Shown here one piece after another: positions 5,631 through 15,408 of a DNA stretch of 64,000 bases. Location of the stretch: NCBI GenBank assembly GCA_964476565.1, contig CAYZBG010000001.1:64405-128404 (forward strand), in the 5' to 3' direction. Under the pieces are notes generated by a model. It did no database searches. It saw only the letters and a list, made by a program, of their open reading frames with translations, and was not told the DNA's origin. The DNA is from an uncultured Opitutus sp. (GTDB lineage: Bacteria; Verrucomicrobiota; Verrucomicrobiia; Opitutales; Opitutaceae). The translations under genes were made by a program, and so were the position numbers. The first letter of the stretch is position 1. Each line of letters opens with the position of its first letter.

Positions 5631-5672
5631 TGCGCCCGTAGCTCAGCTGGATAGAGCACCTGCCTTCTAAGC
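5631..5672 (+). repeat. attL: orphan 5' half of tRNA-Arg(TCT) (tRNA nt 1-41 plus 1 upstream nt)
   Basis: Identical to 15367-15408. The sequence diverges right after TTCTAAGC, so there is no T-arm or acceptor 3' strand and this copy is not a functional tRNA. Confidence 0.9.
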
Positions 5673-5766
5673 ATTGTATCGATTTTTTCAATACGTTTCG
5701 CAACATTTCAGAACGCTGCTTACAGAGGAGAAATCGACGTCTCGCGATTTCATGGGGGCCTGTTCG

Positions 5767-5818
5767 ATTTCACACAATTCCACTGGATCGGGGCGAAATG
5801 TGTGAAATCGGGTGTGAA
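5767..5818 (+). promoter_or_regulatory. candidate integrase/Xis arm-type binding module (left arm)
   Basis: ATTTCACACAATTC ... GCGAAATGTGTGAAATCGGGTGTGAA matches, in the same orientation, GTTTCACTCACAATTC GCAAAATGTGTGAAACGACGTGTGAA at 15280-15321. Confidence 0.5.
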
Positions 5819-5873
5819 TTTTTCGGCCGCGCGTACGATTTGACCCGGGACCAAAACCCGCCAGCCTCGGCAC

Positions 5874-6083
5874 GTGATCGGCTTGGTTCTAGCTCCCGTC
5901 TACCTGCTCGTTGCTTGGGTTTTCGCCCTGGTCGTGTGGAATCAGGCCGTCGCTTGGTGGAACGATCCAACCGAAACCCCGCTGCGCATCGGCCTTGCCG
6001 GGCTGTTCATCTGCTTCGGCCTGCTCGTTGCGTACCATCTTGGGGTTGCCCTGATCAACCGCCTTCGAGGCCGGCGCGAGTGA
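5874..6083 (+). CDS. small hydrophobic (2-TM) protein; the only plus-strand gene of the island
   Basis: A 69-aa ORF with a GTG start and two hydrophobic segments (LVLAPVYLLVAWVFALVVW and GLAGLFICFGLLVAYHLGVAL). Confidence 0.5.
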   Translation: MIGLVLAPVYLLVAWVFALVVWNQAVAWWNDPTETPLRIGLAGLFICFGLLVAYHLGVALINRLRGRRE

Positions 6084-6084
6084 A

Positions 6085-6114
6085 CAAAAAAGCCCCGGCG
6101 TTTCGGCCGGGGCT
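6085..6114 (-). terminator. rho-independent terminator ending the leftward island operon
   Basis: The stem is AGCCCCGGC / GCCGGGGCT. On the minus strand it is followed by TTTTTTG. Confidence 0.6.
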
Positions 6115-6131
6115 GTGAGAGTGCGACTGGT

Positions 6132-6416
6132 TCAGCGTGCCGACTTTCTCGGCAACTTGCCGTTCAGAGGAGGGAGAACCTCCGGCCGGTAGACCAGCCT
6201 GAAGAGATGACTCGGGATCGTGCCCCGAGGAAAGCCAATCTTCTCGCCAAGCACACGGACGTACTCTCGCTCGCCAATTGTCGAGGAGACGATTTCAAAC
6301 CATGCGGCCTCGACGTAATGGAGCCTGCCGACGAAGTGTGCGTGATCCCAGTCCGACGGGCTGCCGATCCAGCGAACGCGGTCACCTCTACGGAATGTGT
6401 GCTTCGGGCGCTTCAT
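6132..6416 (-). CDS. hypothetical protein (second gene of a 2-gene cassette)
   Basis: A 94-aa ORF whose ATGA overlaps the stop of the upstream gene by 4 nt. No family recognised. Confidence 0.55.
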   Translation of the reverse strand: MKRPKHTFRRGDRVRWIGSPSDWDHAHFVGRLHYVEAAWFEIVSSTIGEREYVRVLGEKIGFPRGTIPSHLFRLVYRPEVLPPLNGKLPRKSAR

Positions 6417-6658
6417 GACGCCCTCCCGGCCAGGGCTTCGGATGCATCGCGATGGGCTGCAAGCGCGTCACGAACCATAACGTCGTCATCGATATCGCCA
6501 TCTCGGATGGCGGCTCGGACGGCCTTGACGAAGGGCGGCCCGTCGGGGACATCCCCAAAACGCTCCCGTGGACTGTGTGTTTCGCCTTCGATGAAGGAAC
6601 GCGCAAGGGCGCGGATGTACTTGGCTGTGCGGGCTGAGACTTGGACTGTGTGTTTCAT
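6413..6658 (-). CDS. hypothetical small protein, possible ribbon-helix-helix regulator/antitoxin
   Basis: From ATG 6658 the sequence MKHTVQVSARTAKYIRALARSF resembles an RHH strand-helix. Palindromes lie immediately upstream. Confidence 0.45.
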   Translation of the reverse strand: MKHTVQVSARTAKYIRALARSFIEGETHSPRERFGDVPDGPPFVKAVRAAIRDGDIDDDVMVRDALAAHRDASEALAGRAS

Positions 6659-6663
6659 GAGCA

Positions 6664-13098: not shown

Positions 13099-13240
13099 TC
13101 CGCACCGCCTTTCGGAAAGGGCAGAGGGGCGACACATGGACTGCGGCGCCATTGTGCCCGCCATGCGCGGATCTTGGCGGCGAGGCGCGTGGCCTTGTGG
13201 CGAGCGCTGCGGGGCTGATTGTTTTCGCGGCGGTTGGACT

Positions 13241-13465
13241 TCAAGACGCGCCTTTCCCTGCCACTAAAGCGCGAACGGATGCGACTGTGTAGAGACATTG
13301 ACGAAGGCCAGGCACTCGCTTCAAACGGCCCTCTTTTTCCATGCGCCAACAGGTGACTCTGGAGATTCGTTTACTGCCAAGGAGAGCGCGGACGCCTTCC
13401 AGATCTACTGCTAACGGCTCAAGCGTTGGTTGCGTGGTGTGTGATTTTGTTTCGGTGGATTCCAT
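13241..13465 (-). CDS. AlpA/excisionase-like (HTH_17-type) DNA-binding protein
   Basis: 74 aa. GVRALLGSKRISRVTCWRMEKEGRLKRV...YTVASVRALV fits the small MerR-like excisionase pattern. Confidence 0.55.
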   Translation of the reverse strand: MESTETKSHTTQPTLEPLAVDLEGVRALLGSKRISRVTCWRMEKEGRLKRVPGLRQCLYTVASVRALVAGKGAS

Positions 13466-13550
13466 AGGGCACGCTGTGTTGCGTACCCTATTCTATGGAC
13501 CCGATTTGGTTTCATCCTGCTGAATGCAATTCGGCCAGCTGCTGAGCGCC

Positions 13551-13587
13551 AAAAACAACGAACCCAGGGCTTGCTGACCCCGGGTTC
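13551..13587 (-). terminator. rho-independent terminator after the int-orf149 pair
   Basis: The minus strand reads GAACCCGGGG-N8-CCCTGGGTTC followed by GTTGTTTTTGG. Confidence 0.5.
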
Positions 13588-13631
13588 ATGTCGTGCTGAA
13601 CGCGAACCTATGCGCCCTTTTTTCTGCTGAA

Positions 13632-14081
13632 TTATTTGACAGCCTTTGCCCGGCCGCCCGCGCTGGGGCCTACTTTCTTGAGCCTGTCGCGCTCGGCCTC
13701 CATGGCGTTGATCCACCACGTCGGAAAGGAGTCTCTCGCGCGTGACGATACCCATGCAGACTCGGCACCATCGGGCCCGAAGTGAGGAGTGAGTGCCGCG
13801 ATGCACCATTTCCTCAAAGTGTAGATGTTTTTTGTGCCAAGGATGGTCTTGGCTTCTTCGGCCGTATGATAGGTTTCTGGCGAATCTAGACGCTTTTGCG
13901 CGTCAACCAATCCGGCTGCTTCCTCGTTAATCCATCGATTCCAGAAGATCCATTGAACGAGAAGCCGGTGAATCTCTTTTTTCGTCCATAAGCTGGGAGA
14001 TGGTTGCTCGCATCCAAGCACTTTGGCCCAGCCGATCGCCTGGGCAAACATTGCCAGCTCTGCGGGTGTTGGGACCTTCAT
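13632..14081 (-). CDS. hypothetical protein with an excisionase-like HTH segment
   Basis: 149 aa, AT-richer than its surroundings. TAEEAKTILGTKNIYTLRKWC is HTH-like. The start overlaps the integrase stop by 4 nt. Confidence 0.5.
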   Translation of the reverse strand: MKVPTPAELAMFAQAIGWAKVLGCEQPSPSLWTKKEIHRLLVQWIFWNRWINEEAAGLVDAQKRLDSPETYHTAEEAKTILGTKNIYTLRKWCIAALTPHFGPDGAESAWVSSRARDSFPTWWINAMEAERDRLKKVGPSAGGRAKAVK

Positions 14082-15286
14082 GACGCACCCCCAAAGTTGA
14101 CCTTGGCTGCCTGAGAAACGCTGTGCTCTCGCGTGGCAATGCCCTTGTAACGGGCAAGGAGGGTGACGCCTTCGTCAGCATGTCCCAGCCAGTCTGCAAC
14201 GGTCGGGACCGGGACGCCGGCCTGTATCGCCTGCGTGGCGAAGAAATCGCGCAGGTCGTGGTGGGTGAGGCGAGGGATGCCAACGGCCGCGCATGCCCGC
14301 GTGAGGCTCTTCAAAGCCTCGCGGACACGAAAGACGCGGCTCGAGGGATCGACGTGCGGGACACCGTCGACGGCGACCTCTGCCTGCTCTTCCCGCTTGC
14401 GTCGGATCTTCTCGAAGAGCTCACGGGCGGCCGGGATCAGCGGGACTTCACGGTCACCTGCCTCTGTCTTCGTACCGCGTACCCGCAGGACGCCGGTGAC
14501 GAAATCGACGTCGCGCCAAACCAAGCCGGCCGCTTCCCTCTGTCGGCATCCGGTGAAGGCAAGCCCTCGGCAGAAGTCCGCGGCTTCGATGCCCCGCCCG
14601 CCGATGCATTCCATTTCCGCAAAGATCTCGGCCAGCTTGGACGGCGAGGGCAGGTCGGGCTTCTTCGGTCGATCCTTCGCCCTCAGACCGCGTTTCCCGG
14701 CCAGCACGTTGGCGTGAAGGGCGCCGTTCTCGACCGCCCGGTCCAGCATGCGGCGGACCGTCGCGAGGCCCTTGTTGAACAACGACGCCGACCGCCCGGC
14801 CGTGCCGGTCGATTTGGCGCCAGGCGGGCGGAAACCGGTCCCGGATGTCAGGGCCCGGTTCCGCCACTCGTTCACGGCCGTTACGGTGATCTCGTCGGGG
14901 CGGAGGGACGCGAAACCTGGCCATGTCTTCTCGACGTAGTCAATCGACTGCAGCCGCATCTCCTTGGACTTCGGTCCGATCTCGGCAAGTTGCGCGATTG
15001 CGGCGCGCTCGAGGGCGACCAGTTCCGCCATGGTAGCGACGCCCGCCTTGGCCTTGCGGGACGCCTTGCGCACCCGTTCCACCGATGCCTTGCGATCAGC
15101 GAAGCGGCGCCGGGCAACTTCGAGCTCTGTCGTGCCGAGCGCTTCAAAGCGGTTCTTGCCGGCGAGAGTGAACCGCGCATAAAAGCGTTTCGTTTTCGTG
15201 TGACGGAGCAGGCCCTTCGGCCAGCTCGATGTTCTTTGCCAAGTCTTCGGGGTGGTCTCGTTGCTCATGGTTTCACCGTGTTTCAC
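14078..15286 (-). CDS. int: tyrosine recombinase / phage integrase
   Basis: The C-terminal catalytic region reads RLTHHDLRDFFATQAIQAGVPVPTVADWLGHADEGVTLLARY. The gene abuts the tRNA target. The start is GTG 15286 or ATG 15268. Confidence 0.9.
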   Translation of the reverse strand: MKHGETMSNETTPKTWQRTSSWPKGLLRHTKTKRFYARFTLAGKNRFEALGTTELEVARRRFADRKASVERVRKASRKAKAGVATMAELVALERAAIAQLAEIGPKSKEMRLQSIDYVEKTWPGFASLRPDEITVTAVNEWRNRALTSGTGFRPPGAKSTGTAGRSASLFNKGLATVRRMLDRAVENGALHANVLAGKRGLRAKDRPKKPDLPSPSKLAEIFAEMECIGGRGIEAADFCRGLAFTGCRQREAAGLVWRDVDFVTGVLRVRGTKTEAGDREVPLIPAARELFEKIRRKREEQAEVAVDGVPHVDPSSRVFRVREALKSLTRACAAVGIPRLTHHDLRDFFATQAIQAGVPVPTVADWLGHADEGVTLLARYKGIATREHSVSQAAKVNFGGAS

Positions 15287-15321
15287 TCACAATTCGCAAA
15301 ATGTGTGAAACGACGTGTGAA
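15280..15321 (+). promoter_or_regulatory. candidate arm-type binding module (right arm)
   Basis: See the left-arm module at 5767-5818. This copy overlaps the 5' end of the integrase gene. Confidence 0.5.
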
Positions 15322-15366
15322 ACAAAAAGCAATGTGATAGTCCTAAGGCATTGGTTGTCAGTGGAA

Positions 15367-15408
15367 TGCGCCCGTAGCTCAGCTGGATAGAGCACCTGCC
15401 TTCTAAGC
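15367..15408 (+). repeat. attR core (identical to 5631-5672)
   Basis: Perfect 42/42 identity read directly from the sequence. Confidence 0.9.

Follow-up and report, generated by a model that had tools for sequence, protein, structure and literature searches.

A 9.7-kb tRNA-integrated element of an uncultured Opitutus is probably a capsid-less phage satellite carrying its own small terminase and tail genes

The DNA analyzed here is a 64-kb stretch, referred to as the window, from the genome of an uncultured Opitutus sp. (Opitutaceae, Verrucomicrobiota), and the subject is a 9.7-kb element within it that is integrated in the gene for tRNA-Arg(TCT). This element is probably a capsid-less phage satellite that carries its own small terminase (TerS), tail assembly chaperone (TAC), and tape measure protein (TMP) and depends on a helper tailed phage. 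As in other satellites, there is no virion gene set, there is a replication module of its own with a putative origin, and the reduced architecture is conserved. By homology only, the element also appears to encode functions for redirecting the packaging and assembly of a helper, namely, the TerS, a Bbp16-type fold, the TAC/TMP pair, and a peptide motif shared with the tail end of a phage scaffold. A preliminary description of this DNA had recognized an intact-looking integrative element in tRNA-Arg(TCT) and named no kind of element; the evidence presented here points to a capsid-less phage satellite, not to a prophage or a generic island. Genes were assigned with Pfam and PHROG profiles and tRNAs with ARAGORN and Rfam, and the relatives of the element described below belong to the Opitutaceae/Verrucomicrobiota.

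The block is bracketed by a direct repeat of 42 nt, reported earlier as perfect and found to be exact in both copies (42/42; 5631-5672 and 15367-15408), which encloses the 9.7 kb beside a complete tRNA-Arg(TCT) gene (15368-15444, plus strand; ARAGORN and Rfam, 67 bits). The pair cannot be ascribed to chance, because by our own arithmetic about 5e-18 exact 42-nt pairs are expected in 13.5 kb. The repeat consists of one upstream base plus tRNA nt 1 to 41, i.e., the 5' half, and spans the 5' acceptor strand, the D arm, the 5' anticodon stem, the anticodon loop, and two bases of the 3' stem. The tRNA-Arg(UCU) at attR is the sole such gene in the host genome, for which completeness is estimated at 99.96%. 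The features of the insertion site are as follows.

5583-5630: host tRNA promoter region, upstream of attL
5631..5672, plus: attL core, an orphan 5' half of tRNA-Arg(TCT), nt -1 to 41; 100% repeat
5768..5818: left-arm TGTGTGAAA cluster, with exact copies at 5768-5776 (minus) and 5799-5807 (plus)
14078..15286, minus: tyrosine integrase (Int), 402 aa, transcribed away from the tRNA 5' end; PF00589, phrog_1
15281..15366: right arm, with TGTGTGAAA-type motifs at 15281-15322 and a CCTAAG box at 15343-15348, 20 nt upstream of the rebuilt tRNA
15367-15408, plus: attR core, inside the complete tRNA (15368-15444); supported by the repeat, ARAGORN, and Rfam

Empty sites in relatives establish the event. 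In a comparison set of seven species representatives of the same genus, including G007 and G004, none had any element DNA (0/7) and each had one tRNA match. In G007 the order is a homolog of the 748-aa left-flank gene (42% identity), 168 nt, tRNA-Arg(TCT), and the AraC gene (80% identity), the 3' end of which overlaps the 3' end of the tRNA on the opposite strand. G004 has the same uninterrupted order; in both genomes the left-flank gene is of the LysM type, and nothing lies between it, the tRNA, and the AraC gene. This arrangement is the product expected from joining the two flanks of the window. With a repeat made of a tRNA fragment, an adjacent integrase, and an empty site in relatives, the block is confirmed as an insertion in tRNA-Arg(TCT). 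The larger tRNA duplication that had been raised as another possible source of the repeat is not present. The block is also AT-richer than its surroundings, as had been noted from the letters: GC content is 62.0% compared to 66.1% for the genome, within the lowest 5.5% of 9.7-kb genome windows, and it is lowest in the early region (xis, 54%; orf149, 56%; rep, 58%).

The integrase recognized earlier beside the complete tRNA matches PF00589 (7.6e-16) and phrog_1 (9.5e-40). Its relatives in G011, G031, and G087 (38 to 57% identity) all lie on the 5' side of a tRNA, and the 5' half is duplicated in every such element for which both ends were found (the window, G031, and G087); the G021-type and L042 integrases use the classical tRNA 3' end. 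In the account of tRNA sublocations by Williams from 2002, the 5'-half configuration is reportedly the less common one. The paper describing the Islander method accepts 5' fragments upstream as a legitimate configuration. At a further locus of the same integrase clade (L016; G011:C1:182001-202000), an integrase 57% identical to that of the window and a Xis homolog stand on the 5' side of tRNA-Lys(TTT) (10899-10973); no repeat occurs within the 20 kb examined, and this is a larger island with its far end beyond.

Arm-type repeats had been proposed at both ends, and short repeats do lie just inside both cores. All exact copies of TGTGTGAAA in the window (3/3) fall within ~140 nt inside the att cores, and a left-arm repeat (D10) has a 26-nt match to 15296-15321. 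The TGTGTGAAA motifs are positioned as expected for arm-type Int/Xis binding sites and are candidates for that role. Upstream of attL, the region CTTTGCCCTTGT...CCTAAGGC matches the tRNA upstream region of the empty-site relatives, so attL retains the host promoter together with the orphan 5' half. The 5' half of the complete tRNA and its upstream region would be element derived, provided that the crossover falls in the anticodon loop. A CCTAAG box stands 20 to 21 nt upstream of the rebuilt tRNA in all 5'-half elements (3/3; the window, G031, and G087), at ~6205-6210 (minus) in L015 and ~3940-3945 (minus) in L029 for the other two, and it has been kept though the three integrases are only 38 to 40% identical. 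The promoter region of the host tRNA-Arg has the same box at 5609-5614, 17 nt upstream. The box probably acts as a -10-like part of a tRNA promoter that the element brings with it, and the promoter of the host's only tRNA-Arg(UCU) is probably supplied by the element. A sigma-70 promoter scan of the element, which is uninformative for this phylum, gave 0 hits, and an Rfam scan for noncoding RNAs returned the tRNA only.

Midway along its anticodon stem (15397-15411), directly after the att core, the same tRNA carries a T.T mismatch. An origin as an integration scar, left by segregation of a heteroduplex at the crossover, was considered and rejected; G016 and G029, which are without this element, share the mismatch (GCTGGTGG / GCTAG; L010 and L011). 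Same-genus relatives have a normal A-T pair, and the mismatch reads as a lineage polymorphism.

The genes between the two arms that bear on the nature of the element are listed here, from left to right.

6812..8956, minus: TMP, 714 aa; phrog_339 (3e-13) and five other TMP PHROGs
8962..9507, minus: tail assembly chaperone pair, with a G-like open reading frame (ORF) at 9100-9507, 135 aa; phrog_1442 (2.9e-5)
9589..10002, minus: orf137, with two RPSTHSVWA(K/R)QF copies, a disordered N-terminal half, and a C-terminal 3-helix domain
10007..10408, minus: Bbp16-type jellyroll capsid cement (decoration) protein by profile and predicted fold, 133 aa; PF21190
10412..11074, minus: coiled-coil protein, 220 aa (228 aa according to gene callers), with a conserved basic C-terminal tail
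11125..11493, minus: helix-turn-helix (HTH) protein, 122 aa; weak MarR_2; homologs in G021, L042, L048, and L050 occupy the same position
11615..12091, minus: TerS, 158 aa, with an N-terminal HTH; phrog_57 (1.3e-6)
12200..12928, minus: predicted replication initiator (lambda-O/DnaD-like), 242 aa; phrog_270 (8e-18)
12925..13164, minus: orf79, 79 aa; start/stop overlap with rep
13241..13465, minus: Xis/AlpA-like HTH protein, 74 aa; phrog_66 (E = 0.025, weak)
13632..14081, minus: orf149, 149 aa; start/stop overlap with int; no family match (Pfam, PHROG, and PADLOC)

No ORF of the element matches a capsid protein, portal, large terminase (TerL), tail tube, baseplate, or lysis protein in Pfam or PHROG. 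Only Int (402 aa) and TMP (714 aa) are longer than the 242-aa rep product, and unassigned ORFs are all 228 aa or shorter. With no ORF of TerL or portal size and no match to a capsid protein, the element cannot build particles alone. A small autonomous temperate virus or phage-plasmid with a capsid, portal, and terminase too divergent to be recognized is a highly improbable explanation: it can appeal to the lack of any family assignment for orf149, orf79, the coiled-coil protein, orf137, and the 94a/94b genes at the left end, but these unassigned ORFs (69 to 228 aa) are too small for TerL or portal, 2.1 kb of the total 9.7 kb is taken up by TMP, and the sole recognized head protein is an accessory cement that needs a GP7-type capsid, which is absent from the genome.

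The C-terminal 84 aa of TerS are 67% identical to the TerS of a phage in G028, which sits directly upstream of TerL. Among 300 other genomes of the family, a TerS search found matches in six, and a pattern scan with a 3-sequence TerS alignment returned G028 and G087 again and nothing else. TerL comes immediately after TerS in every full phage with a homologous TerS (G028, G167, two G248 contigs, and six IMG/VR contigs), and the portal, protease, and capsid genes follow where the contig extends. The two G248 contigs, C4 (11,128 bp; L026) and C5 (9,377 bp; L027), each end in a primase, TerS, and the start of TerL, with a TerS 56% identical to that of the element; these are two related phages or prophages broken by the assembly at the same place.

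Three genes between TerS and the tail genes have features that may relate to capsids. The 133-aa protein matches the Bbp16 profile at the borderline (27.2 bits compared to a cutoff of 27.1), and an AlphaFold2 model built from 17 homologs (mean pLDDT, 74) has as its top PDB match, over the full length, the cement protein of BPP-1 (3j4u_H; E = 6e-6; TM score, 0.64). In full phages, the homolog comes directly after the GP7-type major capsid gene or one gene after it; in the element, it stands without any capsid gene. Profile, predicted fold, and the capsid-adjacent place in phages thus agree on a Bbp16-type identity. The coiled-coil protein has an aligned tail of the form HPARL...KKK and was found only in satellite-like contexts; it was present in none of 400 other genomes of the order, and a metagenome scan returned the sister contig again and nothing else. 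It is a candidate alternative scaffold or size redirection factor, and the HTH protein encoded beside it is a candidate late-operon regulator.

The third gene, orf137, contains a repeated peptide, RPSTHSVWAKQF. Among the sequences collected, this motif occurs elsewhere only at the extreme C terminus of the ClpP-type protease-scaffold of the G028 phage, encoded immediately before the capsid gene. That prohead protease (L025:13442-15010) is a ClpP-type domain fused to a long, helical, scaffold-like C-terminal region whose last residues are the RPSTESVWAKQF peptide. Prohead proteases and scaffolds are anchored to the capsid interior through peptides at their C termini, examples being the protease of HK97 and the scaffolds of P22 and 80alpha. 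An exhaustive phmmer search gathered a small orf137 family in which 2 to 5 motif copies precede a conserved C-terminal domain, and the structural model, of low overall confidence, places short helices at the motifs and a confident 3-helix domain at the C terminus. By analogy with docking peptides, orf137 is a candidate capsid-interior or scaffold mimic, acting as a decoy or an alternative scaffold. Its last ~26 residues (...ALELIKTLPDDHPDGLSLLNEW...) match 11 repeated stretches in P0032 (1388 aa) and 7 in a 623-aa protein, and the C-terminal domain may be a widespread repeat unit.

The preliminary description had spoken of phage tail genes in general; there are exactly two, the chaperone and the tape measure. 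The chaperone gene contains the slippery heptamer G GGA AAC (9157-9163) in the X XXY YYZ register, and the -1 frame is open for 65 further codons to a stop at ~8962, six bases before the TMP start, so that a -1 frameshift would yield a 182-aa GT-like fusion. The sister element L042 has the same heptamer and register with a 185-aa fusion, and the two chaperones are 63% identical. Position upstream of TMP, the heptamer, and the open -1 extension are the marks of a G/GT tail chaperone and are all found in this sequence. TMP is 71% identical to its sister in L042 (P0002). Its hydrophobic C-terminal region (aa 418 to 629) is 54% identical to the TMP of a prophage piece elsewhere in the same genome, which suggests that parts of TMP are exchanged with local phages.

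The element also has its own replication and excision genes. The replication-organizer-like gene named earlier matches phrog_270 (8e-18), and its interior holds three TGGC(T/G)AACG iterons in a 21-nt phase (12571-12621) beside an AT-rich tract (12491-12540), a candidate replication origin located within the gene as in lambda O. Upstream of it, orf79 has a 75% identical counterpart in L042 (dN/dS, the ratio of nonsynonymous to synonymous substitution rates, of 0.26) and is present in L050 too. Two excisionase-like HTH proteins had been proposed. This is confirmed only in part. For the 74-aa gene the phrog_66 match is weak, and homologs (41 to 43% identity) adjoin the related integrases in G011 and G087; this protein is a candidate recombination directionality factor. 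The remaining HTH candidates are TerS, with a weak HTH_17 match at its N terminus, and the 122-aa protein. Only one gene lies on the plus strand, the others being on the minus strand, and 4-nt start/stop overlaps join int/orf149, orf79/rep, and 94a/94b, in agreement with the tight coupling reported before.

Comparison to other elements provides the main evidence that this compact layout is not accidental. A search with TMP found a sister element, L042, of 10.56 kb, flanked by a 17-nt repeat derived from the tRNA-Ala(GGC) 3' end. Its integrase, rep gene, and TerS belong to the same functional classes and are non-homologous or very divergent proteins, and a syntenic module comprising HTH, coiled coil, Bbp16, orf137, TAC, TMP, 94a, 94b, and a two-transmembrane (2-TM) gene is 60 to 96% identical at the amino acid level. 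All shared genes tested (9/9) had dN/dS of 0.17 to 0.39 between the window and L042; these nine genes are under purifying selection. L042 has an extra 242-aa gene (9270-9998) between the chaperone and TMP, and an IS110-family transposase (13289-14530) lies just outside its att repeat. Three larger elements also have perfect att repeats derived from tRNA genes.

G031: 13.5 kb, 38-nt 5' half of tRNA-Lys
G087: 14.4 kb, 44-nt 5' half of tRNA-Leu
G021: 16.4 kb, 27-nt 3' end of tRNA-Arg(CCG)

Each of the three encodes an integrase, a rep gene or primase, and TerS, with TMP no more than ~3 kb away from TerS, and neither TerL nor a portal was found in any of them; a prohead-protease-like gene is present in G031 and G087 and a capsid-like gene in G021. 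Metagenome contigs L048/L049 and L050 have the order integrase, rep, TerS, HTH, coiled coil, orf137-like gene, small gene, and TMP at 30 to 42% identity, with a tRNA gene near the far contig end. The preliminary description had held that the same gene block without flanking repeats in relatives would speak against integration; the relatives are each bounded by their own tRNA-derived repeats. In total, at least seven elements, including that of the window, share the reduced layout with various tRNAs, integrases, and rep genes and with late genes that are 30 to 96% identical. By sequence comparison, this layout is a stable, selected, and recombining architecture, not a one-off deletion.

These comparisons bear most directly on the idea that the block is a decaying prophage remnant, i.e., a siphophage that lost its TerL-portal-protease-capsid genes and distal tail genes by internal deletion and has no function of its own. 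TerS, Bbp16, TAC, and TMP are all phage derived, with homologs in full phages; no helper is seen in the genome; and the orf137 motif might conceivably be a scar left by fusion with a protease-scaffold gene at its 3' end. Against this, the two att copies match perfectly and every ORF is unbroken, the same reduced layout occurs in at least seven elements with different tRNAs, integrases, and rep genes, dN/dS is 0.17 to 0.39 across nine genes, the frameshift site is conserved, and orf137 belongs to a family with 2 to 5 motif copies and a folded domain of its own, which is no scar. The satellite is preferred over the remnant because the compact layout recurs in diverged members, which is comparative evidence, and decay is accordingly considered an unlikely origin. 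The earlier suggestion of a recent or still mobile element is in keeping with the perfect att repeats, the intact ORFs, the nine genes under purifying selection, and the conserved frameshift site.

A broader and much more tentative proposal is that the window, L042, L048 to L050, G031, G087, and G021 together form an undescribed family of Verrucomicrobiota satellites with a core of TerS, HTH, coiled-coil protein, multicopy scaffold-tail peptide protein, and TAC/TMP. Under this proposal, the orf137 family would be a capsid-interior decoy whose 2 to 5 tandem docking peptides displace the helper protease/scaffold and so resize or sabotage proheads, the elements' own TMP and chaperone would build satellite-specific tails, and the integrase clade of the window, G031, G087, and G011 would always target the tRNA 5' half and bring a CCTAAG promoter. 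The family, its gene kit (coiled-coil protein, repeat-peptide protein, and cement without a capsid gene), and this host phylum for it appear to be undescribed; the kind of element is already known.

Several results weigh against the satellite interpretation. No helper was found: the host genome has no homologs of the G028-type TerL, portal, or capsid genes, and no PF20911 capsid gene is present in the host genome or in G031, G087, and G021. A search of the assembly for attP/attB junctions returned the integrated form only. No Stl-like repressor or AlpA was recognized in the element. The identity of TerS depends on a modest PHROG score (1.3e-6) and on homology to TerL-adjacent phage genes; the coiled-coil gene had 0 matches in IMG/VR and so no virome sighting; and the orf137 model had no significant structural match in BFVD. 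The roles suggested for the coiled-coil protein, orf137, and the 94-aa pair derive solely from gene position, protein composition, and one short motif.

The host genome does contain one prophage fragment, which fills contig C71 (1776-27607; L002 = 2042-5432) and includes an 805-aa TMP, two genes of tail-tip size (605 aa and 1356 aa), a single-stranded DNA-binding protein, helicases, and an integrase at the contig end; no head genes were located in it. This piece was considered as a resident helper and cannot be named as one: the genome has no homolog of the TerL, portal, or capsid protein of the phages whose TerS matches that of the element. A TMP search of IMG/VR found one 27.9-kb contig with a chaperone, TMP, and integrase.

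Another reading is that the block is an integrative island retained chiefly for interference with phages, in which TerS, the scaffold mimic, the cement, and TMP poison the assembly of invading phages and the element is rarely or never packaged. In its favor, there is precedent for satellite and island proteins that interfere with the assembly of helper tails or capsids, in the Tai systems (PMC11364771) and in Rta of PLE11 (PMC12987554), a multicopy capsid-targeting peptide protein would compete effectively, and the element persists without a resident helper. However, the full mobility and replication kit, the putative iteron origin, and TerS are needed for self-packaging, not for defense, and a PADLOC defense scan covering nine small or unassigned proteins returned coiled-coil noise only. 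Interference and satellite transfer are compatible, making this more a sub-reading than a true rival; as the main role of the element, we give it a low probability.

If the element is a satellite, its gene content suggests the following cycle, in which induction, capsid remodeling, and chimeric tails are what we infer. At rest, the element would be integrated in the 5' half of tRNA-Arg(UCU), and the rebuilt tRNA would owe to it the 5' half and probably the promoter as well. Upon helper infection or induction, Int and the small Xis-like protein would excise the element across the 42-nt cores, and the O/DnaD-like initiator would fire the iteron origin inside its own gene. TerS, with a C-terminal domain matching that of an Opitutaceae siphophage group, could then steer the helper TerL to satellite DNA. 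The coiled-coil protein, orf137, and the Bbp16-type cement would act on helper capsid assembly, probably so that smaller capsids are made or stabilized, and the element's own chaperone (G/GT by -1 frameshift) and TMP would replace those of the helper in otherwise helper-built tails.

Established satellite classes provide partial matches. Phage-inducible chromosomal islands (PICIs) are defined by Int plus AlpA (in Gram-negative hosts) or Stl/Str and a primase or rep gene, with structural genes limited to a packaging/redirection module. Like PICIs, including Gram-negative ones, the element is in the range of ~10 to 15 kb and has a terminal integrase, Xis, replication genes, a redirecting TerS by homology, capsid accessory genes, and a site-specific att. 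Unlike PICIs, it has no recognized AlpA or Stl/Str and has an O/DnaD-like initiator instead of a primase-helicase, and unlike classical PICIs, it carries TAC and TMP with all genes co-oriented. By a SatelliteFinder-type definition, the element would not count as a PICI: it has no AlpA domain (the 74-aa gene has no Pfam match) and no primase, and TAC and TMP are present. Capsid-forming PICIs (cf-PICIs) bring a capsid protein, portal, protease, head-tail connectors, and TerS/TerL-associated genes of their own and had no tail genes as originally defined; the element, with tail genes and no capsid protein, portal, or protease, falls outside this class.

The parallel with P4, the satellite of P2, is one of function alone. 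In P4, the external or alternative scaffold Sid and the capsid decoration/stabilization protein Psu fit helper capsids to a small genome, and the coiled-coil/orf137 pair and the Bbp16-type cement could do likewise. The element is not a P4-like satellite by gene content: no matches to psu, sid, delta, or the alpha primase-helicase were found in it with PHROG or Pfam, and unlike the element, P4 is without TerS, TAC, and TMP. In SaPI1, CpmB reportedly shares the C-terminal capsid-binding segment of the 80alpha scaffold and competes for the same site (work of Dearborn and colleagues in eLife, 2017). Its resemblance to orf137 is one of analogy, not homology, and the orf137 motif is N-terminal and repeated (two copies).

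The closest functional parallel is PLE11 of Vibrio cholerae, whose own TMP, TAC, and BhuB replace those of the phage ICP1 in helper-built tails (PMC12987554, Nature 2026). The chimeric tails are 10 nm shorter, PLE TMP is found in virions, Rta blocks the helper TMP, and predicted tmp genes occur in other, unrelated satellites (PMC12987554). Like PLE11, the element is a small integrated satellite, on the reading preferred here, without a capsid gene set and with its own chaperone and TMP; substitution is shown by experiment for PLE11 and would be a prediction from gene content here, and the two are likened by description, not by sequence. Unlike the PLEs, which use serine recombinases according to the literature, it uses a tyrosine integrase in a tRNA gene; the PLE11 helper ICP1 is a myophage, whereas a siphophage with a GP7-type capsid is the probable helper here; no Rta or BhuB homolog is recognized in the element; and the host phylum is Verrucomicrobiota. 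The EPIPs of Mycolicibacterium aichiense are small satellites with TerS and TMP (PMC12822802, preprint December 2025) and, like the element, are without tail structural and lysis genes. They differ from the element in their serine integrase and in encoding a major capsid protein, a scaffold, and a head-to-tail adaptor/stopper; they have been isolated as particles and come from an actinobacterial host. VEIMEs are marine virion-encapsidated integrative mobile elements, tyrosine-integrase satellites whose TerS is closest to those of co-occurring phages and some of which are integrated in Verrucomicrobia (PMC9618062); a term search of the VEIME main text returned no instance of "tape," and the comparison is by description only.

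Satellites that tamper with tails were shown experimentally only in 2026, with PLE11, and the element would extend this strategy to Verrucomicrobiota, a phylum with almost no characterized phage biology, using an unrelated gene kit. Testable parts include the chaperone/TMP pair with its conserved frameshift, the cement without a capsid partner, and the protein family built of scaffold-terminal-peptide repeats. In addition, an integrase clade whose insertions reconstitute both the 5' half and the promoter of a tRNA that is essential and single copy would tie expression of the host's only tRNA-Arg(UCU) to element DNA. Elements of this kind are easily mislabeled "incomplete prophages" during annotation.

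The left end of the element, downstream of TMP, contains the remaining features.

6413-6697 and 6132-6416, minus: 94a and 94b, two coupled 94-aa genes downstream of TMP; no family matches
6091..6114, minus: intrinsic terminator closing the leftward late operon, with a 9-bp stem, 8 GC pairs, and a T-run
5874..6083, plus: 69-aa hydrophobic (2-TM-like) protein, the sole plus-strand gene

The 94-aa pair is 72% and 95% identical in L042, with dN/dS of 0.28 and 0.39. The 69-aa gene has a 75% identical counterpart in L042 at the same position and in the same orientation. The terminator-delimited operon structure described earlier is supported by the strong terminator at 6114-6091, whose location would also let it serve the 2-TM gene, read from the opposite direction.

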